Below are positions 10,847 through 64,000 of a stretch of 64,000 nt of DNA, one piece after another. This stretch comes from Chloroflexota bacterium (GTDB lineage Bacteria; Chloroflexota; UBA11872; UBA12225; JAJDUF01): contig OZ243944.1 of assembly GCA_965214295.1 (NCBI GenBank), forward strand, positions 917,099 to 981,098. Direction: 5' to 3'. The translations under genes were made by a program, and so were the position numbers. Position 1 is the first letter of the stretch; every line of letters begins with the position of its first letter. Below the pieces are notes generated by a model. The model made no database searches. It saw only the letters and a list, made by a program, of their open reading frames with translations, and was not told the origin of the DNA.

Positions 10847-11312
10847 CCTCGAACTCCTAGCTCCTGCTCAGTCGGCGAGAGCACGGGGCACAGTGTCCGT
10901 CCGGTCAACGGCAGATTGTGGACTACGGTTGGGCCGGCTCGTGGCGGTCGGTCTGCTGGCCTGGCTGCTCATCGCCTGCGGCGGTGGAGACGGCGGCAGC
11001 TCTGGTGCGAGCGGCCCCCCGGCCGGCCGCACGATCAAGATGACGATGCTGGACACGATGAAGTTCGTCCCCGATCGCTTCACAGTCAAGGCGGGAGAGA
11101 CCGTGCGCGTGGAGCTGACGAACAAGGGCGTGCTGATCCATGACTTTGTCTTCCGCGACGGGGAAAAGGACGTCAGGGTGGAACTGAGTGGGGGTAAGAA
11201 CGGCGTGGCCTCGTTCATGGCGCCGACGGTGCCGGGCGAGTACGAGTTCGCCTGCATCGTGCCAGGCCATACAGAAGCCGGGATGAAGGGGGTCATGCGT
11301 GTCGTCGCCTAG
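10836..11312 (+). CDS. cupredoxin (type-1 copper, plastocyanin/azurin-like) lipoprotein
   Basis: Lipobox LLIACGG. Cu ligands HDF...CIVPGHTEAGM. Overlaps ctaA start. Confidence 0.8.
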   Translation: MVADLELLAPAQSARARGTVSVRSTADCGLRLGRLVAVGLLAWLLIACGGGDGGSSGASGPPAGRTIKMTMLDTMKFVPDRFTVKAGETVRVELTNKGVLIHDFVFRDGEKDVRVELSGGKNGVASFMAPTVPGEYEFACIVPGHTEAGMKGVMRVVA

Positions 11313-13347
11313 TGGCGCCGGTCCGGGGAGCGTGATCCCGGACGGTGTCGGGCGGGCGCCGGGGCGCTTTCGGTGGCTCGTCCTTGCCACCATCGCTGCG
11401 ACCTACCTCCTGATCGTGATGGGCGCCGTGGTGCGCGTGACCGGCTCTGGGCTGGGCTGCCCGGACTGGCCACTCTGCTACGGGCGCCTCTTTCCGCCGC
11501 TCGAATTCGCGCCGTTGCTCGAATACACGCACCGGCTCGTAGGCGCCATCGTTTCGGCGCTGATCGTGGCCGTCGTGGGGAGTATCTGGCTGCGCTTCCG
11601 TCACCACCGGCGGCTGGTGGTGCTAGCGAGTGGCGTCGTAGTACTACTGGTCATCCAGATCGGCTTGGGGGCGGTGACGGTCCTCACGGAGCTGTCCCCG
11701 CTGGTGGTGCTCATCCACCTTGGGTTGGCGATGCTGGTGTTGGGTGCCCTGGTCATGCTCGCGGTATACACGGGGCCGGTCGGTGGTGGCGCCCCGACGA
11801 CCGGCGATAGTCGGCAGCCGGAGCAATGGGTGGGGTTCCGCACGCTGGTCCTCACCACCGCAGCGGCCATCTACGCCTTGGTGCTGACCGGCGCGGCCGT
11901 CCGGGCCACGGGCGCTACGTGGTCCTGCATCGGCTGGCCCGACTGCAACGGAATACTGCTCCCGCTGGGGGTAGACCCGCTCGTTGATACTCACCTGCTG
12001 CATCGGTTTACCGCGTACACCATCGCGGTGCTGGCAGTGCTGACGGTGGTGCGGGCGCGGTTGTGGCGGCGCCGGTTTCCGGCGGTGTGGTGGGGGGCGC
12101 TGGCGCTGGTGGCCGGCGTCGTTGCCCAAGGCGCAATCGGGGTTTGGGGAGTCACGGCCGGGTTCGTGCCGCTGGTCCAGGCCCTCCACGTCGCCGGGGC
12201 GTCGGCGGCCTGGACGGCGGCCGTGGCATTGGCCGCGCTGGTGACGCGCTCGTCTGCACCAGCCGCCAGTGGGGGTGTAGCGGAGCCGCTGCCGGCCGAT
12301 GTTGGCCACCGCCGCACCACATCTGGCCGCATCCGTGCGGCGGTGGCCGACGACCCACCGCCGCCCCCTCTCTCTCCGCTGGTAGAGAGAGGGCCGGATG
12401 GTGAAGCCGCCGAGAGATCCCTGTACCGAGCAAGCGCGGAGGGCGTAGGGGCGCAGCATGCTGCGCCCCTACACGACCGCCGTAGGCCACTGTCCGGCTT
12501 CCTGCAGTTGACCAAGCCGCGGATCGTGCTGCTCTTACTCGCGCCGACGCTCTGCGCGATGATCGTCGCCGCCGACGGCTGGCCCTCTCCGCTCCTCGTC
12601 GGCGCGACCCTGTTGGGCGGGGCGCTGGCCGCCGGGGCCGCGAACGCCTTCAACCACTACCTGGATCGCGACATTGACGCGATCATGCGCCGCACCGCGC
12701 ACCGCGCGCTCCCGGCGGGGGTCCTCCGGCCGCGGCAGGCGGTGTGGTTTGGCTTGGTGCTGGCCGCGCTGTCGTTCGTCGTGCTGACCGTGTTTGCGAA
12801 CCTGTTGGCGGCGCTGCTGACACAGGCGGCTATTGTGTTCTACGTCTTCGTCTACACGCGCTGGCTCAAGCGGTCGTCGCCCAGCAATATCGTCATCGGG
12901 GGCGCTGCCGGGGCAGTGCCCCCCTTGGTAGGGTGGGCGGCAGTGACCGAGAGCATCGGGCTGCTCGCGCTGTACCTGTTTGCCATCATCTTCTACTGGA
13001 CGCCGCCGCATTTCTGGGCACTCGCGCTGCTCATCAAGGACGACTACGCCCGCGCGCGTATTCCCATGCTGCCGGTCGTGCGCGGCGGTGCCGAGACGCG
13101 GCGGCAGATCGTGCTGTATTCGCTGCTCATGGTGGCGATCACGCTGCTGCTGGTTCCCTTCCAGCTGGCCGGCCCGTTCTACCTGGCGAGCGCCGTCCTG
13201 CTCGGGGGACTGTTCGTCTTCTATGCGGTGCGTCTGCTGCGCGAGGCCTCGGCGTTGGCGGCCCGGCTCCTGTTCAAGTATTCGGTGGTCTACCTCTACC
13301 TCATCCTAGCGGCTATTGTGGTGGACCAGAAGTTCATCGGCGTTTAA
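11299..13347 (+). CDS. ctaA-ctaB: single ORF encoding haem A synthase (CtaA/COX15) fused to protohaem IX farnesyltransferase (CtaB/COX10)
   Basis: N-terminal GSGLGCPDWPLC plus His-bearing TM helices (CtaA). C-terminal LTKPRIV and NHYLDRDID (UbiA-type CtaB). No in-frame stop. The joint at 12270-12500 is built from palindromic repeats. Confidence 0.85.
   Translation: MSSPSGAGPGSVIPDGVGRAPGRFRWLVLATIAATYLLIVMGAVVRVTGSGLGCPDWPLCYGRLFPPLEFAPLLEYTHRLVGAIVSALIVAVVGSIWLRFRHHRRLVVLASGVVVLLVIQIGLGAVTVLTELSPLVVLIHLGLAMLVLGALVMLAVYTGPVGGGAPTTGDSRQPEQWVGFRTLVLTTAAAIYALVLTGAAVRATGATWSCIGWPDCNGILLPLGVDPLVDTHLLHRFTAYTIAVLAVLTVVRARLWRRRFPAVWWGALALVAGVVAQGAIGVWGVTAGFVPLVQALHVAGASAAWTAAVALAALVTRSSAPAASGGVAEPLPADVGHRRTTSGRIRAAVADDPPPPPLSPLVERGPDGEAAERSLYRASAEGVGAQHAAPLHDRRRPLSGFLQLTKPRIVLLLLAPTLCAMIVAADGWPSPLLVGATLLGGALAAGAANAFNHYLDRDIDAIMRRTAHRALPAGVLRPRQAVWFGLVLAALSFVVLTVFANLLAALLTQAAIVFYVFVYTRWLKRSSPSNIVIGGAAGAVPPLVGWAAVTESIGLLALYLFAIIFYWTPPHFWALALLIKDDYARARIPMLPVVRGGAETRRQIVLYSLLMVAITLLLVPFQLAGPFYLASAVLLGGLFVFYAVRLLREASALAARLLFKYSVVYLYLILAAIVVDQKFIGV
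12304..12472. repeat. mosaic of three different palindromic elements (E, D and C types) forming the ctaA-ctaB joint
   Basis: E: GGCCACCGCCGCAC-N17-GTGCGGCGGTGGCC, 12304-12348. D: CCCTCTCTC...GAGAGAGGG, 12364-12393. C: GTAGGGGCGCAGCATGCTGCGCCCCTAC, 12445-12472. Confidence 0.85.
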
Positions 13348-14653: not shown

Positions 14654-15601
14654 ATGAGCAAGTTACAAGTGGCGCTGATCGGCTGTGGCGGGCGCGGGCG
14701 CGGGTATCTCCAGGAGTTGACGAGCTTCGACGACGTAGACGTGGTGGCAGTGTGCGATCCGGTGGCGGCTGTGCGGGAGCCGGCGGCGGCCGAGTTCGGG
14801 GTGCCGCGCCAGTATGCGTCCATCGAGGACATGCTGGACGGCGAGACGCTCGACGCCGTGTTCGTAGCAACCCCAGCGCATCTGAACGCCAAGTGCGCGC
14901 TGCCCTGCCTGGAACGCGGGGTCAATACGCTGCTGGAGAAGCCCCCGGGCTTGAGCGTCGCCGAGACGACAGGGATACGCGATGCCGCGCGGCGCACGGG
15001 CGCAAAGGCGATGGTCGGCTGGCAGCGCCGCTTCAATCCCTTCATCCGGCAAGCGCGGCGGATGATCGAGGAGCGCGGTCCAATCGTGCAGCTGGTCGGT
15101 GAGTTCCACAAGAGCATCACCGGGCTGGAGGCTGCGGGACGCTGGCCGGAACAGGTCATGGACAACATGCTCCTGGAGAGTCCCATCCATGCCATAGATG
15201 TCACGCGGGCGCTGGCCGGTGGCGAGGTCGTCGAGGTGCATAGCGTGGTGCAGCGGCGGCTTTCACGTTACAAGGATGTCCACGCAGCGCTGGTGCTCTT
15301 CGACAACGGCTGCATATTACAGGTGAGCGCCGCCTACACGAGTGGTGGCCGGCTGGAGCGGTATGAGCTTCACGGGCACGACATCTCGGCATACCTGGAG
15401 GGCGTCTCGGGAGGCGTAGCGGTCTACGACGGCCAAACGCACGAGTTGGCCGGAGAAGGGTCGGCGGCTACGGTAGCGCAGAACCGCTTCTTCCTCGACT
15501 GCATCAAAGAAGATCGTCCGGTGACGCTGCCCGCTGCCAACCTCGACGAGGCCGTCAAGACCATGGAACTGGCCGAGCGGATTCTGGCTGGGTTGCGCTG
15601 A
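14654..15601 (+). CDS. Gfo/Idh/MocA-family oxidoreductase
   Basis: N-terminal Rossmann VALIGCGGRGRGY and EKP motif (LLEKPPG). Paralog of 53743..54708. Confidence 0.9.
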   Translation: MSKLQVALIGCGGRGRGYLQELTSFDDVDVVAVCDPVAAVREPAAAEFGVPRQYASIEDMLDGETLDAVFVATPAHLNAKCALPCLERGVNTLLEKPPGLSVAETTGIRDAARRTGAKAMVGWQRRFNPFIRQARRMIEERGPIVQLVGEFHKSITGLEAAGRWPEQVMDNMLLESPIHAIDVTRALAGGEVVEVHSVVQRRLSRYKDVHAALVLFDNGCILQVSAAYTSGGRLERYELHGHDISAYLEGVSGGVAVYDGQTHELAGEGSAATVAQNRFFLDCIKEDRPVTLPAANLDEAVKTMELAERILAGLR

Positions 15602-15715
15602 TCGCCTCACCCTCTGACGGGCCAAAGCCGCACGTGGAGAGGGAGGATATGGCGGCCGGTTGCTGCGCGGACTCCCACTCCCTGGAGGGACTGGGCCGGG
15701 GGTGAGGTCCCGGTC

Positions 15716-29136: not shown

Positions 29137-30417
29137 TCAGGGACGGATCACGGTGCCGTCAACGCGCCGGACGGGTGCCCAGGAGCCGTTGAGGGGATCG
29201 GCCGGAGCCGCACGGGCGGTGCCAGGTGTGGTGCGGCTCCGGCCGGTCAGGGGATGATCAGGGAACGGGAAGCGCCCCGCCAGCGCCTCGTCAACGTCCA
29301 CGCCCAACCCGGGCCGGTCGCTAGGCCACATGTAGCCGTCGCGGATTTCGGGACAGCCGGGGAACACCTCCTGGGTGTTCGCGCCAAAGACGTGCTGCTC
29401 CTGGATACCGAAGTTCCAAACCGCCACGTCCAACTGGAGATTGGCGGCGTGACCCACCGGGGAGACGTCTCCCGGCCCGTGCCAGGCGGTACGCACACCA
29501 AAGAACTCGCACATGGCCGCCAGCTTGCGGGCCATGGAGAGGCCGCCAATCGTCGAGACGTGGACACGAATGAAGTCTATGAGGCGGTCGCGGATGAGGG
29601 GCACGTACTCGGCCTGATTGACGAACAGCTCGCCCATGGCAATCGGTGTACTGCACTGGGCGCGGATCATGCGGAAATACTCGTTGTCCTCGGGCGCCAG
29701 TGCATCTTCGAGGAAGAAGAGCTTGTACGGCTCCAACTCCTTCGCCAAGCCCACCGCCTGGATGGGCGGGATGCGCTCGTGAACGTCGTGCAGCAGCTCC
29801 ACTTCGTCGCCGAGCTGTTCCCGTAGGTACGCGAATAGCTGTGGCACCCGCCGGCAATAGGGCGTCGGCTCCCACGCCGCTGGCACATTGCCGCTGGTGC
29901 CGTAGGTGGAGAGGCCGGGGACGGCGACCTGGCAGCGCACGTAGCGGTAGCCTTGTGCCATGTAGGCGCGCACCTGGTCCGCCACTTCCTGGAAGTCGCG
30001 GCCGGAGGCATGGGCGTAGAGCGGCACCCGGTCGCGGCACTGGCCGCCGAGGAGCTGGTACACCGGCATACCGGCCCGCTTCCCTTTGATGTCCCAGAGC
30101 GCCTAGTCCACGCCGGAGAGGGCGTTGTTCAGGACGGGGCCGCTGCGCCAGTAGCTACTGACGTAGCCGGACTGATAGATGTCCTCGATGTCGTCGGGAT
30201 TGCGGCCCAGCAGGAACGGCCGGAGATAGTCCTGCACGGCCGCAACGACGGCAAGGGGACGCTGGGTGAACGTCGCGCAGCCCAGGCCGTACAGCCCCGG
30301 CTCATTGGTCTCGACCTTGACGACCACCAGCCGGATACCGTCCGGCGCCGTGCAGAGCGCCTTGACGTCGGTAATCCGTAGATCGGGTAATCCGCCGCGT
30401 ACTCCGTGCTCGACCAT
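29137..30417 (-). pseudogene. enolase-superfamily D-mannonate dehydratase (ManD/RspA-like) interrupted by an in-frame TAG at 30103..30105
   Basis: ORFs 30103..30528 and 29137..30069 are colinear in one frame: ...[28 protein letters not shown]. The stop replaces the Met of the conserved VDMALWD motif. Confidence 0.8.
29200..29244. repeat. E-type hairpin element inside the ManD-like coding sequence
   Basis: GGCCGGAGCCGCAC-gggcggtgccaggtgtg-GTGCGGCTCCGGCC. Translated in frame (minus strand) as GRSRTTPGTARAAPA. Confidence 0.85.
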
Positions 30418-30513
30418 CGATGCCGCTCCTTTATCAATGCACGTGATTTTACAGGTTATAAATCTGCGCTGCTCGTGCTCCCAGACGGCTCCGCGCGACA
30501 TTTCGGGCAAAAA

Positions 30514-30553
30514 ACTAGGGTTTTCCACAGGTCAAGACTAGGGTTTTCCACAG
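30514..30553. promoter_or_regulatory. 17-bp perfect direct repeat x2 in the divergent intergenic region (candidate operator)
   Basis: ACTAGGGTTTTCCACAG at 30514-30530 and 30537-30553, spaced 6 bp. Lies between the ManD-like gene (minus) and 30720 (plus). Confidence 0.45.
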
Positions 30554-39613: not shown

Positions 39614-40363
39614 ATGTGTGGACGGTACACTATCACAGCCGATGCCCAGCAGCTGGCCTTCCGCTTCGGCGCGGAGCCACCGGCGGCCGGGGTCGCGGCC
39701 CGGTACAACGCTGCGCCGACGCAGCAGTTGCCCGTGATCGTCAATGCGGAGCCAACTACCATTCAGTTGCTCACTTGGGGCTTGGTCCCGGCATGGGCAC
39801 GGGACAAGACCGGCGGGACACGCCTTATCAACGCCCGCCTGGAAACTGCGGCCGAGCGACCGAGCTTCCGTCACGCTTGGCGGCAACGCCGCTGCCTTGT
39901 GCTCACCGACAGCTTCTACGAATGGCAGCGCACCGCGCGCGGCAAGGTACCGCTGCGGATCGCCCTCAAGAGCAACGAGCCGTTTGCCTTTGCCGGCTTA
40001 TGGGAAGAGGTGACGACGCCAGAGCTGCACAATCCGCTGGAAATAGGTGGTGCAGCTCCGGCGCGGCAGTGGCGCGGCACTGAAGGGGCAGCGATGCGTA
40101 CGTTCACCATCCTCACCACGACCCCCAATGATCTCATGGCACCCATCCACAAGCGGATGCCGGTGATCCTGCACCCGGAGCAGGAGGCGGCCTGGCTCGA
40201 TACGGAGTCGGACCAGGACTGGCAGCGCGTCCTGGGCCCGTTCCCGTCCGATCCAATGACAGCCTACCCGGTGTCGTCGCGGGTCAACTCACCCCGCTAC
40301 GACGATCCCTCCCTGATCGAGCCGCTGGTCACTACCGACCAACTCCGGCCGCTCGGGCTGTAG
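39614..40363 (+). CDS. SOS response-associated peptidase (SRAP/YedK family, abasic-site DNA-protein crosslinking)
   Basis: Diagnostic N-terminus MCGRYT, NARLET, and FYEW motifs. Confidence 0.9.
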   Translation: MCGRYTITADAQQLAFRFGAEPPAAGVAARYNAAPTQQLPVIVNAEPTTIQLLTWGLVPAWARDKTGGTRLINARLETAAERPSFRHAWRQRRCLVLTDSFYEWQRTARGKVPLRIALKSNEPFAFAGLWEEVTTPELHNPLEIGGAAPARQWRGTEGAAMRTFTILTTTPNDLMAPIHKRMPVILHPEQEAAWLDTESDQDWQRVLGPFPSDPMTAYPVSSRVNSPRYDDPSLIEPLVTTDQLRPLGL

Positions 40364-44110: not shown

Positions 44111-44722
44111 TTGGCAAGCCGCAACAGAGACCCCAACGACAGCCGGCGGAGAGCACGCCGGCGACGCCGCTTGTCGCGGGACGCGGGGCAACGCCTGGTC
44201 GCAGCGCTGCACCGCGACCTACCGGCGGTCGTAGACCTCCTGGAAGGCACGGCGGTCGAAGAGCTGCGTATCGAGCAGGATGAGACGGTCTTCGCCATCA
44301 AGCGACCTCTGGGCATTGCCGCGCCGCCGGAGGCAGTCACCTCCGACTCCGACGCAGAAATCCCCGAAGCAGGCATCTCCGAAGCCGCCATGGAGCAACA
44401 CCCGCCGCCACCACCGTCGCCGCCCGCCGAAGAATGGACGATGATCGCGCCGTGCGTTGGCATCTTCCGCGCCGGCAGCCATGCGGACACGGCGCCACGG
44501 GCCGAGGTCGGCACCACCGTGCAAGCGGGGCAGGTGCTCGGCTACGTCGAAGTGATGGGCGTGATGAACGATGTAGAGGCCAGCTACGCCGGCCGTGTCA
44601 GCGAGATTGCGGTCGAGGACGGTCAGCCGGTCGAGTACGGGCAACCGCTGTTCGTGCTCCGGGCCGAGGATGAGATCGCCAGCCAAAACTCCGGCCGTGC
44701 TGGCGATCCACCGAAGGACTAG
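44111..44722 (+). CDS. biotin carboxyl carrier protein (AccB)-like protein lacking the biotinyl-lysine
   Basis: AccB-like N-terminus (VVDLLEGTAVEELRIEQDETVFAIKR), Pro/Ala linker and C-terminal biotinyl-domain fold. The EAMKMMN motif reads EVMGVMN (Gly codon at 44558..44560). Confidence 0.8.
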   Translation: MASRNRDPNDSRRRARRRRRLSRDAGQRLVAALHRDLPAVVDLLEGTAVEELRIEQDETVFAIKRPLGIAAPPEAVTSDSDAEIPEAGISEAAMEQHPPPPPSPPAEEWTMIAPCVGIFRAGSHADTAPRAEVGTTVQAGQVLGYVEVMGVMNDVEASYAGRVSEIAVEDGQPVEYGQPLFVLRAEDEIASQNSGRAGDPPKD

Positions 44723-44811
44723 GACCGCCGGAGTTTTGGCTGGCGAGACGGAACCGGCCGCGCCAGCAGAGTAGTCCTGCTACGGGCATGATTGCAGCGC
44801 AAACGGTGATG

Positions 44812-44856
44812 GGCCAAAGCCGCACGGATAGGGACAGGTGTGGTGCGGCTTTGGCC
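44812..44856. repeat. E-type hairpin element (intergenic, upstream of GT9 gene)
   Basis: GGCCAAAGCCGCAC-ggatagggacaggtgtg-GTGCGGCTTTGGCC, a perfect 14-bp stem. Confidence 0.88.
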
Positions 44857-44865
44857 TATCAGCGC

Positions 44866-45891
44866 GTGCTCGTGGCCCGGCCCGGCGCCCTCGGTGACAC
44901 GCTGCTCGTCGCTCCGGCACTGGCACGACTGCGCCAGGCCCAACCCCAGGCCGAACTGACGTACTGGGGCAATGAACCGGCCGCCGGCCTCCTGCGCCAG
45001 CTAGGCCTCGTGGATCGGGTCGTCTCGTTCGAGCACCTCGCGCTGGTCCCCCTCTTCATCGGCGCCGGTAGTATGCGCGGCCCGGGGGCGGCCAGCCGCA
45101 TTGGGCGGCTGCTCAACCGTCCCGAGGCGGCAGTGCTGTGGCTGCGGCGGAGCGACGATGTGCAGCAGGCACTCGCCGCGCTGAATTGCCCAACGGTGGT
45201 CAGCACACCGTCGCTGCCGCCGGGCGCACGCACCGACGGCACCGTCGAGCCGGGTACAACCCCGTCCCACGTGGCCGTCTACCTCGTGCAGACCCTCGAC
45301 ACCTGGCTCGGGCCGCGTTCGGGCCGCGCGTTACCCTTGTCGCGGCTCGTACCGACGGCAGAAGCGCAGGCGTGGGCTACAGGCCTGTGGCGGCGGCTAG
45401 GCCTCTCCGACGATCAGCCGGTCGTCGTACTGCACCCGGGCAGCGGCAGTGCGCGCAAGAACTGGCCGGTGGAGCGGTTTGCGTCCGTCGCTACGCTGCT
45501 GGCCGCCCAGGACGTGGTCACACTCTTGATCGCGGGGCCGGCGGACGTCACGGCCGCGGCCCGGGTGGCGGCGCTGGCCGGGGAATCTGTCCGCCGGGTG
45601 CCGCCGGCAACGCTCGACGAGATCGCGGCGCTGCTCGGCCGCTGCCGGGCCTATCTGGGGAACGACTCCGGTATTACCCACCTGGCAGCGCTCACCGGGA
45701 CACCGACCGTGGCCATCTTCGGCCCGACCGATCCCACGGTATGGCGGCCGCTGGGGCAGCACGCCCGGGTGGTGCGCGCCGCCGGCCAAGGCGATGCGGC
45801 TTGGCCGACGGTGGAGGAGGTGGGTGAGGCGGTGTTGCTGGCCTTGGATTGTGGCGCCGCACCCCCTGACGGGCCAAAGCCGCACGGATAG
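44866..45891 (+). CDS. glycosyltransferase family 9 (heptosyltransferase-like)
   Basis: VLVARPGALGDTLLVAPAL and GNDSGITHLAA motifs. ORF 44788 includes a hairpin repeat, so GTG 44866 is preferred. The stop codon lies inside another repeat copy. Confidence 0.85.
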   Translation: MLVARPGALGDTLLVAPALARLRQAQPQAELTYWGNEPAAGLLRQLGLVDRVVSFEHLALVPLFIGAGSMRGPGAASRIGRLLNRPEAAVLWLRRSDDVQQALAALNCPTVVSTPSLPPGARTDGTVEPGTTPSHVAVYLVQTLDTWLGPRSGRALPLSRLVPTAEAQAWATGLWRRLGLSDDQPVVVLHPGSGSARKNWPVERFASVATLLAAQDVVTLLIAGPADVTAAARVAALAGESVRRVPPATLDEIAALLGRCRAYLGNDSGITHLAALTGTPTVAIFGPTDPTVWRPLGQHARVVRAAGQGDAAWPTVEEVGEAVLLALDCGAAPPDGPKPHG

Positions 45892-45912: not shown

Positions 45913-46003
45913 CGGTCCGGATGGCGGCTTGCGCCGCAGTGACGGGGGCCGGGGTGGGGATGTAGCCACGCACGAAAAAACCTACCCCTATCAGGTGGAT
46001 CTG

Positions 46004-53651: not shown

Positions 53652-53695
53652 GTACGGTTGGCAGTGTTGAACGGGCATTATCGTGAGGCGACGCC

Positions 53696-53723
53696 GTAGG
53701 GGCGCAGCATGCTGCGCCCCTAC
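53696..53723. repeat. C-type 28-nt perfect palindrome
   Basis: GTAGGGGCGCAGCATGCTGCGCCCCTAC, identical to 12445..12472. Degenerate copy near 34008..34033. Confidence 0.9.
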
Positions 53724-53742
53724 CTAAGGAGGGAACCGGTAT

Positions 53743-59286: not shown

Positions 59287-62130
59287 ATGCGTAGTGAAGA
59301 GATTCGCCGGCGCTTTGTCACGTATTTCGAGCGTCAAGGACATCTGGCTCTGCCAAGCGCCTCGCTCATCCCCCACGACGATCCGAGCGTGCTGTTCACC
59401 TCGGCGGGGATGCAGCAGTTCGCCCCCTACTTCGTCGGGGCCGCGGCGCCGCCGGCGCCCCGTCTTGTGACCGTCCAACGCTGCGTGCGGACGGACGACA
59501 TCGAAGAGGTCGGTGACAATACGCACCACACCTTCTTCGAGATGCTGGGACACTTCTCCTTTGGTGACTACTTCAAGCGGGAAGCCATCGCCTTCGCTTT
59601 CGAGTTTGTAACCAAGGAGCTAGGACTTCCTGCCGACCGTCTATGGGCGACGATCTTTGCCGGAGAGCCTGGCATTCCCCGCGATGATGAGGCGGAAGCA
59701 GCGTGGCAGGCAGTGGGTATTCCGGACAGCCGTATTCGGTCGTTCGGATTCGACGAGAATTGGTGGGGACTGGAGACCGGTCCGTGTGGGCCAGACTCGG
59801 AGATCCATATTGATCTCGGCCCAGAGGCCGGCTGCGGCCTCCCTGACGACCAGTGCGGACCGAACCACTGCAACCGTTTCTTCGAGTTCTGGAACGCGGT
59901 CTTCAACCAGTACAACAAAGCTGCCGATGGCACCCTGACGCCGCTCAAGCGCACCGGGATTGACACGGGCGCCGGTTTCGAGCGCATCGTGGCCCTCCTG
60001 CAGGACAAACCGTCAGCCTACGAGACCGATCTCTTCGCTCCCCTGATCGCTGCGGCGGCGGCGCAGACCGGGGTGGCCTATGGCAAGGCGCCGGATACGG
60101 ACCTCTCGCTCCGGGTCATCGCCGAGCACCTCCGCGCCGCGACCTTTCTGGTGGCCGACGGCGCGCTGCCCTCCAGCGAGGGGCGCGGTTACGTCGTGCG
60201 CCGGCTGATCCGCCGCGCTGTCCGGCACAGCCGCCTACTCGGCAGCGAAGTGCCAATTACCGGTCCGGTTGTCGCGGCCACCCTCGACCGGATGGCCGAG
60301 CACTACCCCCACCTGGCGCAGAAACGTGCCCTGATCGAGCGAGCCGCGGCGGACGAGGAGGCACAGTTCGAGCGGACCCTCGACGCCGGCACGCAGCTGC
60401 TGGAAGCGGAGGTCGCCGCGCTGAGGGCACAGGGAAATACCACCCTGCCGGGCGAGACGGCCTTTCGGCTCTACGATACGTTCGGCTTCCCGCTCCCGTT
60501 GACCGAGGAGATCGCCGCCGCGCAGGGCATGGAGGTGGATACGGACGATTTCGAGCAGCGCATGGCCGCGCAGCGCGAGCGCAGCCGGGCGGCGCAGCAG
60601 TTCGAGCAGTGGCGTGGCATCACGCTCCCGGCAGTCGAGGTCACGTTCGAGGGGTATGCCGGGACCGCGGTGGACGGCGCCGAGGTGTTGTGGATCGGAC
60701 CGGTGGCGGTGCCAGATAGTGCGGAATCGGCGCGTCAGGACAACGAGCCCGCCACCGCCGCACCACACCTGGCCCTATCCGTGCGGCGGTGGCCGGCTCC
60801 GGTAGCCGTAGCCGGGGCCGCGGCGATGATCGTCCTCGACCGCACACCCTTCTACGCCGAGGGCGGCGGGCAGGTAGCCGATAACGGGACCATCACCGGC
60901 CCACACGGACGCTTCACCGTACAGGACGTGCAGCGACCGGCCGGCAAGGTCATCGTGCATATCGGGGAAGTCGCCGAGGGCCAGCTGGCAGTCGGCGAGC
61001 GGGTCAGTGCCCACGTTGACCGCGCGCGGCGCGCTGCTACCGCTCGTCACCACAGCGCGACCCACCTCCTGCACGCTGCGCTGCGGGCAGTGCTGGGCGA
61101 GCACGTCCAGCAGTCCGGCTCCTTGGTTGCGCCGGAGCGGCTGCGCTTCGACTTCTCCCACCGGGGGGCCCTCGACCCCGACGAGCAGCGCGAGATCGAG
61201 CACCGGGTCAACGCCGCGATTCGCGCCAACCTGCCCGTGGAGCCGACGGTCATGCCGCTGCAAGAGGCATTGGCGAGCGGGGCGCTCGCGCTCTTCGACG
61301 AGCGTTATGGCGAGCAGGCACGGGTAGTCCACATCGGCGATCTCAGCCGTGAGCTGTGCGGTGGGACCCACGTCGCGCGAACGGGCGACATCGGCTCCTT
61401 CATGCTGACAGCGGAAGGGGGCATCGGCTCCGGCCTGCGCCGTGTCGAGGCGGTGACGGGTGCTGCCGCCGAGTCGTTGGCGGCTGATACCCGCGCCACG
61501 CTGGAGACGCTGAGTCACACGCTGGGCGTCCCGGCGGCCGAGGTGGTCGGGCGCGTGGAGCAGCTGCAAGCGGAGTTAGCGGAAACGCGCCGCCAACTGG
61601 CAGCGGCCAGTCGTCAATCCGACCAAAGCACGCTGGAAAGCGTCCTGCAGGAGGCGGTCGGGGTCAACGTGGCGACGCCAGAGCCGCACGATCCTATGGG
61701 AGTCGGTGGTGCGGCTCTGGCATGCCACGCGCATGTCTTGGCGACAGAGGTCGCGGTAGCCGACATGCACGCGCTGCGGGAAACGGGCGATTGGCTCCGC
61801 GACCACCTCCCTGGGCCGGCGGCGCTCATTCTCGGCACCACGCGGTCCAAACGACCGCAACTGCTGGTGACCGTGCCGCGCGAGCTGGTGAACAACGGCC
61901 TGAGTGCGGGCGCTTTGCTGCGCGAGGTGGCGGCGACCATGGGCGCAAAAGGGGGCGGCCGGCCGGCCATGGCTCAGGGCGGCGGCGGCGATCCTTCGCG
62001 CCTGGCAGCGGCGCTGGCTCACGGCCGCGAGCGGGCAATCGCGATTTTACGCGGTGGTGACACACCCGATCCGCATAAGGCAGCGCAATCCAAGGGGGCG
62101 CGGACCAAGCGGCCGGGTGGCGCCTCGTGA
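59287..62130 (+). CDS. alaS: alanine--tRNA ligase
   Basis: MRSEEIRRRFVTYFERQGH, FTSAGM, HHTFFEMLGHFSFGDYFK, editing-domain HxxxH (HSATHLLH), CGGTH, C-terminal DHHA1-like. Carries a repeat insertion at 60751..60793. Confidence 0.97.
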   Translation: MRSEEIRRRFVTYFERQGHLALPSASLIPHDDPSVLFTSAGMQQFAPYFVGAAAPPAPRLVTVQRCVRTDDIEEVGDNTHHTFFEMLGHFSFGDYFKREAIAFAFEFVTKELGLPADRLWATIFAGEPGIPRDDEAEAAWQAVGIPDSRIRSFGFDENWWGLETGPCGPDSEIHIDLGPEAGCGLPDDQCGPNHCNRFFEFWNAVFNQYNKAADGTLTPLKRTGIDTGAGFERIVALLQDKPSAYETDLFAPLIAAAAAQTGVAYGKAPDTDLSLRVIAEHLRAATFLVADGALPSSEGRGYVVRRLIRRAVRHSRLLGSEVPITGPVVAATLDRMAEHYPHLAQKRALIERAAADEEAQFERTLDAGTQLLEAEVAALRAQGNTTLPGETAFRLYDTFGFPLPLTEEIAAAQGMEVDTDDFEQRMAAQRERSRAAQQFEQWRGITLPAVEVTFEGYAGTAVDGAEVLWIGPVAVPDSAESARQDNEPATAAPHLALSVRRWPAPVAVAGAAAMIVLDRTPFYAEGGGQVADNGTITGPHGRFTVQDVQRPAGKVIVHIGEVAEGQLAVGERVSAHVDRARRAATARHHSATHLLHAALRAVLGEHVQQSGSLVAPERLRFDFSHRGALDPDEQREIEHRVNAAIRANLPVEPTVMPLQEALASGALALFDERYGEQARVVHIGDLSRELCGGTHVARTGDIGSFMLTAEGGIGSGLRRVEAVTGAAAESLAADTRATLETLSHTLGVPAAEVVGRVEQLQAELAETRRQLAAASRQSDQSTLESVLQEAVGVNVATPEPHDPMGVGGAALACHAHVLATEVAVADMHALRETGDWLRDHLPGPAALILGTTRSKRPQLLVTVPRELVNNGLSAGALLREVAATMGAKGGGRPAMAQGGGGDPSRLAAALAHGRERAIAILRGGDTPDPHKAAQSKGARTKRPGGAS
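60751..60793. repeat. E-type hairpin element (inverted orientation) in frame inside alaS
   Basis: GCCACCGCCGCAC-cacacctggccctatcc-GTGCGGCGGTGGC. The loop is the reverse complement of the 44812 loop with 1 mismatch. Translated as ATAAPHLALSVRRWP. Confidence 0.88.
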
Positions 62131-62335: not shown

Positions 62336-64000
62336 ATGGCAGCAGACGAGCACCCGCCACCCACCACGGACTCCGGTTCGTCGTGGCGCTTCGTGCCGGT
62401 GGATTCAGCCGACGACCCGGCGGACCTGCTCCGCCGAATTGCAGCCGAGCAAGCGCCACGGGTCTGCCTGGTCGCCGTCGGAGCGGTCCCGGCCCTGCAG
62501 AGGCCGACCGTCCTGCGGGCGCTACGCAGTCGAGCCGCCGCTGGGCAGATTACGCTAGGCCTTGCTACTCACGACCAGAGACTACTCGGGATGGCGCAGG
62601 CGGCCGGTTGGGAAATATTGTCCATTGACGCCACGGAACTGGCGGCGGCAAGCGGTACCGATCCCCGCCGCCAGCGCAGCGGCAGGAGGCCAAGCAGACC
62701 ACCGCGCCAAGCAGCAGAGCCAGCACCAGCGCAGCAGGAGCAACCGCGCACGGCGGCAGAGGCGTTGGCGGCCGTCGCTGCCGGCTCGTCGGCGCGTCTA
62801 CGGAGCGCCCGGACGGGGAGACGGTCGCAGGAAACCATGCGGTCAGCGCGGCAGCCGCAGGAAACTACGCGGCCCGTCCGGGATAACTCCCGCCGCGTCG
62901 CGGTCGACACTACCGCCGCGGCAGTCGAGCGCGATGATCCCCGGCCGGCGTCGGCACCACGGATCACATGGCGGCCCGTCTTGGCTGCCGTCCTCACGGT
63001 CGTGTTGCTGGTCGCTGGCATGTTCTTTGGCCTCCCTAACGCTCGTGTGACGCTCCAGACGATGCCGGTGGAGTTCAAGTCCGACATGACCCTGATTGCC
63101 GATGCGCGGGTGCGTGGGATAGGTGTCGCCGATGGCAAGCTGCCGGCGCAGGTCGTGTCCGTAGAAGCATCCGAAAGCCTGGAAATCCCCACGACGGGCC
63201 AGGACGCCGTGCCGGACCGAAAAGCCACCGGCGAGGTGTTCTTTACGAACAAACTCAGTAGCCGGGTCGTCGTGCCGCTAGGAACGGTCGTGCAGGCCGG
63301 AGCCGGTCAGAGCCGCACGGATGGTGGGAGGGGTGGTGCGGCTTTGACCGGTGTCGTCAGCTTTGTGACGACCGACGAGGTGGTCATCCCCGGCAGCGTC
63401 ACGACCGGATCGCAGCAGAGCTTTGGGGTCGGCCGCGCCAAGATCGAGGCGGTGACCGGCGGCACGGCCGGAAACGTCGCCCCGGAAGCGATCAAGGCAG
63501 TTGCTGGGCCGTTGAGTGAGAGCCTGGTGGTGCGGAATGACGAACCGACCCAAGGCGGCACCGACCGGGAAGTACGCTTCGTCACGGCCGGAGATCGCCA
63601 GCAACTCTACAACACGCTGCTGGCTACGCTGCAGGAGCAGGTCGAAACACGCCTGAGCGAGCGCGAGCGCAGCGGCGAATCGCTCGTCGTATGGCCCGAA
63701 CCCAACCCGGCCATCACCGAGGAGGTCTACGAGCCGGGGAAGGTGCGCGCCGAGGCCAACTCTGTGCGCCTCCGCATGAAAGTACGATACAGCGCCACGC
63801 AGTTCCGGGGGGACGACGTAAATCAACTGGTCAATGAAAAAATCGCCGCGCACGTGGCCAGCATTGCGCCCGGGTGGGTCGTGGTCAACGAGACGTTGCA
63901 GGTCTCGCCGCCGGTAGTAGAGCGCGTGGAGCTGGGCGGCGCAGTTCACATGCAGATTCAGGTCCGAGGACACCGCGAGCCGAACGTGGACGTAGGGCAA
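62336..64000 (+). CDS. large membrane-anchored protein, 3'-partial (runs off window); tentatively baseplate-J/gp47-like extracytoplasmic repeats
   Basis: My own translation: 555 codons from ATG 62336 to base 64000 with no stop. Absent from the supplied track. One TM (WRPVLAAVLTVVLLVAGMFFGL). ATGEVFFTN and GGTAGNVAPEAI motifs. The start could be further upstream (GTG 62156). Confidence 0.75.
   Translation, partial: MAADEHPPPTTDSGSSWRFVPVDSADDPADLLRRIAAEQAPRVCLVAVGAVPALQRPTVLRALRSRAAAGQITLGLATHDQRLLGMAQAAGWEILSIDATELAAASGTDPRRQRSGRRPSRPPRQAAEPAPAQQEQPRTAAEALAAVAAGSSARLRSARTGRRSQETMRSARQPQETTRPVRDNSRRVAVDTTAAAVERDDPRPASAPRITWRPVLAAVLTVVLLVAGMFFGLPNARVTLQTMPVEFKSDMTLIADARVRGIGVADGKLPAQVVSVEASESLEIPTTGQDAVPDRKATGEVFFTNKLSSRVVVPLGTVVQAGAGQSRTDGGRGGAALTGVVSFVTTDEVVIPGSVTTGSQQSFGVGRAKIEAVTGGTAGNVAPEAIKAVAGPLSESLVVRNDEPTQGGTDREVRFVTAGDRQQLYNTLLATLQEQVETRLSERERSGESLVVWPEPNPAITEEVYEPGKVRAEANSVRLRMKVRYSATQFRGDDVNQLVNEKIAAHVASIAPGWVVVNETLQVSPPVVERVELGGAVHMQIQVRGHREPNVDVGQ
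63303..63351. repeat. E-type hairpin element in frame inside ORF 62336..64000
   Basis: CCGGTCAGAGCCGCAC-ggatggtgggaggggtg-GTGCGGCTTTGACCGG, 16-bp stem with one G-T pair. Translated as GQSRTDGGRGGAALT. Confidence 0.85.

Follow-up and report, generated by a model that had tools for sequence, protein, structure and literature searches.

The classic palindromic repeats found in frame within protein genes are the Rickettsia palindromic elements (RPEs; Ogata et al. 2000, via PMC10969869 and PMC3733652), which measure about 100-150 bp and reside in obligate intracellular Alphaproteobacteria (PMC10969869). [quoted passage not shown] We analysed a hairpin element of 55 nt that recurs in a 64,000-nt stretch of a Chloroflexota metagenome-assembled genome (MAG; assembly GCA_965214295.1, contig OZ243944.1, positions 917,099 to 981,098 of the forward strand; hereafter the window), where it lies in frame within genes such as alaS, and in loci fetched from related genomes, which are designated L001, L002 and so on.

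Like RPEs, the element is a palindromic, non-coding, selfish repeat present in many copies, and it sits in frame within unrelated housekeeping and metabolic genes, adding a short peptide where the fold can accommodate it, while the orthologues of related species lack the insert. The behaviour that characterizes RPEs, namely in-frame insertion into functional genes at structurally tolerant positions, was likewise observed here, which supports the RPE-like behaviour inferred in a first-pass annotation of the window. Size and phylum nevertheless set the element apart, its hosts being free-living Chloroflexota of high G+C content, and no sequence relationship with RPEs is expected. Unlike RPEs, the element shows a demonstrated 2-bp target duplication, which brings the total to 57 nt or 19 codons, and only about 15-25% of its copies are located in coding sequence (CDS). 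Given its 55 nt and its different phylum, it works like an RPE yet is not one. In-frame palindromic repeats were already known; the present case is well documented and somewhat instructive, though not surprising in principle. Independently of Rickettsia, it documents well for a second time that selfish palindromic DNA can reside within essential protein genes. We consider it probable that its copies form a family of very small, non-autonomous, MITE-like DNA transposons in one Chloroflexota clade, the arms of which would be kept complementary by template switching.

Anatomy and distribution of the hairpin element

The core described in the first-pass annotation, GCCGCAC-N17-GTGCGGC with a conserved loop, was found five times in the window (at 12311, 29207, 44819, 60757 and 63312), compared with a mean of 0.17 matches in dinucleotide-preserving shuffles of the same sequence, none of 100 of which reached five. 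The G+C content of the window is about 65%. Alignment of about 100 copies extends this core to a unit of 55 nt made of a 19-bp stem, TGACnGGCCAAAGCCGCAC / GTGCGGCTTTGGCCnGTCA, and a 17-nt loop, GGATAGTGCCAGGTGTG, which is conserved, yet not invariant. The consensus, based on 94 distinct copies, is paired right to its ends (TGAC/GTCA). Outer stems had been reported to differ between copies while always remaining complementary; complementary they are, but they turn out to be variants of one consensus, TGACnGGCCAAA/TTTGGCCnGTCA. Folding energies of the copies as single-stranded DNA are -18 to -26 kcal/mol, and their z-scores lie between -5 and -9.

A covariance model built from the element (R1) was run on the window and on the fetched loci of relatives. 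It retrieved five full copies and one decayed copy from the window, and about 115 distinct copies from 0.8 Mb of fetched loci. The list of copies drawn up earlier stands in most respects, as five of its members carry the core and those at 45868 and about 15617 are real but degenerate, while the length of about 45 nt given to them has to be replaced by 55 nt. R1 also recovered a sister family, termed family 2, of which the window contains two copies; its inner stem, AGCCGCAC/GTGCGGCT, is the same, whereas its loop, of 19 nt, is not. Searching the whole window against Rfam at the gathering threshold gave no match, and a tRNA scan of the window found none.

To assess the distribution of the element, a 21-base pattern was scanned against one genome per species (Genome Taxonomy Database, GTDB), yielding at least 99 matching stretches. 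Among the matches listed, all belong to eight Chloroflexota MAG assemblies, except two chance actinobacterial ones. The same pattern searched in 241 million JGI metagenome records gave a single match, unrelated and attributable to chance. As the listed genome matches cluster in Chloroflexota MAGs and the metagenome collection yields only that chance match, the family is lineage-specific; judging from these sequences, it appears to be specific to one clade of uncultured Chloroflexota. Copy density is one per 10 kb in the window and about one extra copy per 40 kb in the fetched loci, and a rough estimate of the number of copies per genome is of the order of 100. The model building and copy scan proposed in the first-pass annotation thus describe a large family restricted to one lineage. 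Too few copies or a lack of stem covariation had been put forward as arguments against such a family; neither was encountered, with at least 99 stretches in the genome scan and 96 compensatory cells in the stem (see below).

The window and several of the relatives are MAGs, and some library artefacts are known to yield palindromes, so that the copies could in theory have been produced by assembly or sequencing, or represent chance palindromes in GC-rich DNA. The probability of this is negligible in our view. Among the matches listed, the same element is found in long-read assemblies, some of them complete, and in short-read assemblies (k141, k113) from different projects, copies are located at orthologous positions in different species, target duplications are present, and the shuffled windows argue against chance.

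Target duplication and nesting in host repeats

Four pairs of filled and empty sites (L010/L016, L016/L010, L056/L008 and an L056 paralogue) document insertion: where the site is empty, the sequences flanking the element share exactly 2 nt, and the net gain is 57 nt in each pair. More generally, 53 of 111 copies have the same dinucleotide on either side of the 55-nt unit, compared with 2 of 111 in an offset control. Duplicated pairs are mostly CC..CC or GG..GG, and since AC..AC and GT..GT pairs occur beside them, the duplicated bases are derived from the target. Inverted ends of 19 bp together with a 2-bp target duplication are hallmarks of MITEs and would point to a transposase cutting with a 2-bp stagger.

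Like bacterial MITEs (Correia/NEMIS, ERIC, RUP, Nezha; PMC10969869), the element has terminal inverted repeats (TIRs), duplicates its target, lacks coding capacity, is dispersed and can give rise to in-frame fusions. Four of five features used to assign MITEs were found, i.e., a small non-coding unit, TIRs, a target duplication, and dispersed copies that are polymorphic in presence and absence. The fifth would be a related autonomous insertion sequence (IS) that has the same ends and supplies the transposase, on which the search of the fetched loci is described below. While MITEs are usually 70-300 bp in length (PMC10969869), the element at 55 nt is essentially composed of two TIRs and a 17-nt spacer; its CC target, its preferred site within another repeat and the lack of a known parent IS also distinguish it. 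We propose that a transposase acting in trans with a 2-bp staggered cut would mobilise the element, that selection would then purge insertions damaging to proteins and leave survivors in flexible loops and linkers, and that some copies would later be trimmed by in-frame deletion. Such trimming would account for the net inserts of 45 and 51 nt in the window, both of which differ from 57 by multiples of three.

Several observations weigh against this proposal. The autonomous partner of the element was not found: no transposase gene was detected between closely spaced copies, where the ORFs are ordinary metabolic genes, and a search of about 0.9 Mb of loci for solo arms, of the kind that would mark a full-length parent IS, turned up only decayed copies. 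A 2-bp CC duplication indicates no specific IS family that can be named with confidence, and mutations are frequent at the distal base of the left duplicate (TC, GC or AC versus CC). The CDS copies of the window for which an empty orthologous site is available all account for less than 57 nt (45, 51 and 51); these would have been trimmed after insertion, although insertion of shorter variants may be the alternative. Finally, the loop is oriented one way in about 84% of the nested copies described below and the other way in 16%, relative to the asymmetric repeat hosting them, a strong bias that might have arisen if some of these copies had spread within a composite unit instead of inserting independently.

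About 80% of the copies are intergenic, and most of these occupy a single fixed position, a run of five C (C5), within another short repeat. This host repeat is about 40 nt long and reads GGACCTAACCCCCGGCCCC...GGGAAGGGG, with variants. Its five-C run is the preferred target of the element, which explains why most copies are both intergenic and nested. Nested copies most commonly read GGACCTAACCCC-element-CCCGGCCCCTTCCCTnnAGGGAAGGGGAG; others, of a variant form, read GGCCTCACCCcc-element-CCCGGCCCCCTCTCC...GGAGAGGGGG, and in a third type the element directly follows GGCCCCC. Nested copies have seven C and empty host repeats five, and uninterrupted host repeats are common in the same loci. At about 15.6 kb the window retains only a left arm, left by an insertion into a host repeat followed by loss of the loop, the right arm and part of the host repeat. 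Since the orthologous host repeat of relative L103 is uninterrupted where the window has this left arm and deletion, nesting arises by insertion. The host repeat, abundant as GGACCTAACCCCCGGCCCCTTCCCTnnAGGGAAGGGGAG with variants CCTCACCCC...CCCTCTCC..GGAGAGGG, is itself a small hairpin repeat.

Nesting in other palindromes has also been described for some REP families, including GTAG-23 of the Chloroflexi member Thermomicrobium roseum (PMC3733652), and like REPs and REPINs (Di Nocera et al. 2013, PMC3733652), the element is a short, multi-copy and mostly intergenic palindrome of which some copies are intragenic and translated. It might therefore be of REP type, moved as a single-stranded DNA hairpin, with no target duplication, by a REP-associated tyrosine transposase (RAYT; an IS200/IS605-like Y1 transposase). 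Classical GTAG...CTAC palindromes are indeed present in the same genome, at 12444 and 53695, and a RAYT may be present as well. We nonetheless regard this origin as improbable. The element lies outside the definition of REPs in three respects: it carries a 2-bp target duplication, it lacks the unpaired GTAG or CGTC tetranucleotide tag, and its 19-bp stem and 17-nt loop are much longer than in described REPs, which measure 20-40 bp in all, CGTC stems being 8-9 bp and loops 4-5 nt (PMC3733652). In addition, no Y1 transposase gene, and thus no RAYT, adjoins the copies in the fetched loci.

A strict definition of CDS copies, under which the frame must stay open for at least 90 nt to either side of the copy and show matching periodicity of G+C at third codon positions (GC3), places 17 of 120 copies (about 15%) deep in CDS. 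A looser GC3-based gene caller assigns 30 of the 120 to CDS, including copies within about 100 nt of guessed starts; this caller is crude, and the resulting fraction of about 15-25% is approximate. As coding density is about 80%, CDS is strongly under-represented among the copies, as expected under purifying selection against insertions in CDS.

Stem covariation and loop inversion

Over the 94 distinct copies, 93.8% of stem cells are paired, and double changes are observed at all 12 pairs that are free to vary, i.e., not fixed by the search pattern. The 96 compensatory cells compare with 23 in column shuffles and at most 16 when partners are slid, confirming the covariation reported in the first-pass annotation. 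The idea that the outer stems are inverted copies of the target, as in alaS where the flank GAGCC pairs with GGCTC, was rejected as a general rule: the window copies at 12304 and 60751 both bear the non-consensus arms GGCCACC/GGTGGCC, and the arms of the copy in a GT9 glycosyltransferase ORF match the consensus and are unrelated to their target.

Compensatory changes at every variable pair, found also between orthologous copies, could reflect a functional nucleic-acid structure, such as a signal for the stability or processing of RNA or a site bound by a protein, maintained by selection even in coding regions. The strong conservation of the loop sequence agrees with such a role, as does an asymmetry in the mismatches, 68 of which would be G-U wobbles on the CACACCTGG-loop strand versus 31 on the other. 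Most wobble-type mismatches, however, define subfamilies, and are hence inherited rather than independent. Copies moreover lie either way round with respect to genes and use four frames, they decay by deletion, and their presence or absence in close relatives means that they are dispensable; nothing in the window matched Rfam. Among intergenic copies, neither 3' ends nor convergent spacers are clearly favoured (tandem 36, convergent 18, divergent 13), the distribution being close to that expected from spacer length, and no T-run follows the stem, on which grounds a terminator or other 3'-end function was rejected. Selection for a functional hairpin is thus an improbable explanation, the more so as the behaviour of arms and loop can be explained by template switching.

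Orthologous in-CDS copies from three relatives illustrate this behaviour (Table 1). Although the three copies share one site of one gene in different genomes, the loop in L099 is inverted with respect to L023 and L074, so that one site encodes two peptides; between L023/L074 and L099, a single stem pair differs in both arms, C-G having become A-T. For short inverted repeats, template switching during replication is reported to homogenise the arms and invert the spacer (PMC8604942), and to create and maintain hairpins (PMC8794818). The same arm homogenisation mimicking compensation, and the same spacer inversion between orthologous copies, are seen here, and from the alignments both the covariation and the loop inversion appear to fit replication template switching as well as selection. 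Following insertion, the arms would stay complementary and the loop could invert, most likely through replication template switching from one arm to the other and not through selection on hairpin function. Because this process covers both arm homogenisation and loop inversion, a function of the hairpin is not required. Template switching belongs to the evolution of any inverted repeat and does not explain the dispersal of more than 100 copies; in the present case it would act on the copies of a mobile element, including those located in CDS. The family consequently offers a clean system to separate selective 'compensatory' stem evolution from template switching.

A more far-reaching scenario can be drawn, which we find rather unlikely as a whole: the frame-neutral element would act as a lineage-wide generator of protein-loop insertions, in-situ inversion of its loop would create flip/flop peptide alleles, its mobility would depend on an undescribed, CC-specific transposase strongly preferring a C5 run within a second repeat family, and the hairpin might also be retained in mRNAs for a function there.

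Copies within alaS and other protein genes

As the element and its duplication add up to 57 nt, or 19 codons, a fresh insertion never shifts the reading frame. Six-frame translation of the consensus with its duplication reveals three of six frames free of stops, and a sizeable share of CDS insertions therefore leaves the ORF open with an extra loop of 15-19 residues, making the arithmetic of tolerance directly visible. Peptides read from copies in CDS conform to the classes predicted, TGQSRTD.ARCGAALA, TGQSRTTPG.IRAALA and DAPAPHHTWHHPCG, while a fourth class, AAPHLA.SVR, is read in the TGA frame in copies that have lost this TGA (GAGC in alaS, TGG in L085). Three combinations of orientation and frame are in use in the window and a fourth in relatives. 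The first-pass annotation had claimed copies free of stops in at least three frames and both orientations; all of the peptides it quoted were reproduced. The features discussed are collected in Table 1.

Table 1. Element copies, related hairpins and host features in the window and in fetched loci (positions refer to the window unless a locus is named)
Feature	Position	Strand	R1 score or other evidence
Element copy, interdomain linker of the CtaA-CtaB fusion (gene 11299-13347)	12299..12353	-	62.1 bits
Host repeat sites	12367-12400; 15590-15700; many loci, e.g. L046 6446, L039 1768		
Element remnant, left arm only, in a CCTCACCC...GGAGAGGG host repeat	15615..15634	+	Comparison with L103
Element copy near the 3' end of the ManD-like gene (29137-30528, minus strand)	29195..29249	+	70.5 bits
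Second family 2 hairpin, in frame in the SRAP gene (39614-40363)	40011..40068	+	23.5 bits
Full 55-nt copy, first codons of the GT9 glycosyltransferase ORF (44788-45891)	44807..44861	+	78.6 bits
Decayed copy overlapping the GT9 stop codon	45867..45918	+	39.7 bits
alaS, alanyl-tRNA synthetase, 947 aa	59287..62130	+	Pfam tRNA-synt_2c, tRNA_SAD, DHHA1
Element copy, alaS site B	60745..60799	-	72.8 bits
Family 2 hairpin, alaS site C	61670..61727	+	32.9 bits
Element copy in the Baseplate_J-like ORF (62336 to window end)	63300..63354	+	60.3 bits
Element copy, third alaS site (alaS of OZ250185)	L002 10806-10860		R1 match
Orthologous in-CDS copies	L023 6136-6189; L074 6236-6288; L099 5501-5554		Sub-threshold BNR_2 Pfam match

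The alanyl-tRNA synthetase (AlaRS) encoded by alaS was compared with 12 orthologues sharing 83-88% identity and ranging from 892 to 928 aa. The extra in-frame segment suspected in this protein proved to be real. At site B, the net insert amounts to 45 nt or 15 aa (ATAAPHLALSVRRWP or an equivalent register) at residues ~489-503; it is absent from all of the ~12 close orthologues and appears as a clean 45-nt indel relative to the DNA of L001 and L002. The consensus TGA is missing at this site because the outer stem ends have been trimmed or changed. Site C harbours a family 2 hairpin contributing a net 57 nt or 19 aa (VATPEPHDPMGVGGAALAC) at residues ~795-813, a segment absent from all orthologues. 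Near residue 269, four orthologue clusters (P0005, P0009, P0010 and P0012) share a 19-aa insert, VPLPDAHDGGRGGARLARQ, at a third site that is empty in the window. On these comparisons, alaS has been hit independently at three sites in different lineages of the clade.

In an AlphaFold2 model of AlaRS derived from a 40-sequence alignment (mean predicted local distance difference test score, pLDDT, of 84.9), the insert of site B falls in a coil with pLDDT<50 (476-502) between strands 461-472 and 506-508, and that of site C in a loop between strands 791-794 and 814-821, with pLDDT<50 at 804-809. Both inserts thus map to low-confidence predicted loops. In more distant Chloroflexota AlaRS (P0015, P0022 and P0023), the beta-barrel loop of site B is occupied by low-complexity inserts of 30-60 aa that are unrelated to it, and this loop is a general hotspot of length variation.

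Alignment of host proteins with their orthologues, suggested in the first-pass annotation as a check, revealed presence/absence polymorphism in the Baseplate_J-like, GT9 and CtaA-CtaB proteins in addition to AlaRS. The ORF that starts at 62336 has orthologues carrying a Baseplate_J domain (PF04865); the in-frame copy reported within it accounts for a net insert of 51 nt or 17 aa (AGQSRTDGGRGGAALTG) that is absent from the orthologues of both syntenic relatives, L001 and L002. The GT9 ORF (Pfam Glyco_transf_9) has an insert of the same net size, 51 nt or 17 aa, just after a conserved ATG, compared with L024, which lacks it. The decayed copy at the other end of this ORF has suffered a 5-nt deletion in the loop and degradation of the right arm, and the orthologous position of L024 is occupied by an intact copy.

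The copy noted at the joint of ctaA and ctaB encodes ..GHRRTTSGRIRAAV.. within a fusion protein with COX15-CtaA and UbiA Pfam domains, and the linker segment encoded by the hairpin is absent from all 16 of the close orthologues compared. Fusion of CtaA (heme A synthase) to CtaB (heme O synthase), giving proteins of ~600-680 aa, is found throughout the Chloroflexota matches, and the length of the linker is highly variable. The DNA of this linker, which was compared with L103, contains another hairpin, CCCTCTCTCTCC...GGAGAGAGAGGG, that is translated as well and is related to the ~40-nt host repeat.

The copy reported in the ManD-like gene was also recovered. It is flanked by GG...GG and accounts for ~19 extra residues (..TGRSRTTPGTARAAPA..) in an ORF matching the C-terminal domain of the enolase superfamily in Pfam; when compared with distant solved homologues, the C-terminus realigns to PDB 4ihc/3tw9 only once ~19 residues are removed. 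An in-frame TAG at 30103-30105, within the conserved motif ..SGVD*ALWDIKGK.., splits the N- and C-terminal domains of this gene into two ORFs. The gene may therefore be a pseudogene, or the TAG may be a base error of the assembly. The second family 2 hairpin of the window encodes ..VTTPELHNPLEIGGAAPARQ.. in an SOS-response-associated peptidase (SRAP), the Pfam SRAP match of which spans 227 aa on a profile of 214 positions.

CDS copies in the related genomes are hosted by genes for ordinary enzymes (a sulfatase, a hydantoinase with two copies, an acyl-CoA dehydrogenase, CotH and a GFO/IDH/MocA protein) and for a PTPS-related membrane protein. Together such insertions test in nature which protein loops can take up 15-19 additional residues. 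These repeats also inflate protein lengths and can fuse or extend ORF calls in the annotation of MAGs, and they are useful as markers at the strain and species levels.

Other small palindromes were observed near the copies. A perfect palindrome of 28-30 nt, GTAGGGGCGCAGCATGCTGCGCCCCTAC, with REP-like GTAG...CTAC ends, is present twice in the window (12444-12473 and 53695-53724). Within the CtaA-CtaB linker, the first of these is read in frame as GVGAQHAAPL and is missing in the 16 orthologues, and units resembling it, 'gggcgcaacatgttgcgcccctac', are found in related loci. A recurrent short hairpin, GGATTGCGGCTTGCGCCGCAATGACGG, also seen as GGATTCCCGC....GCGGGAATGACGG, lies at 45925-45950 of the window and in other loci (e.g., L004, L032, L042 and L049), where it often adjoins nested elements. 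These observations suggest that small palindromic repeats of at least five families form mosaic clusters in this lineage. An unrelated 69-nt palindrome at 44677-44745, with a 19-bp stem beginning CGCCAGCCAAAACTCCGGC and a folding energy of -50 kcal/mol as RNA, occupies the spacer upstream of the GT9 ORF and belongs to an insertion of ~70 nt that relative L024 lacks.

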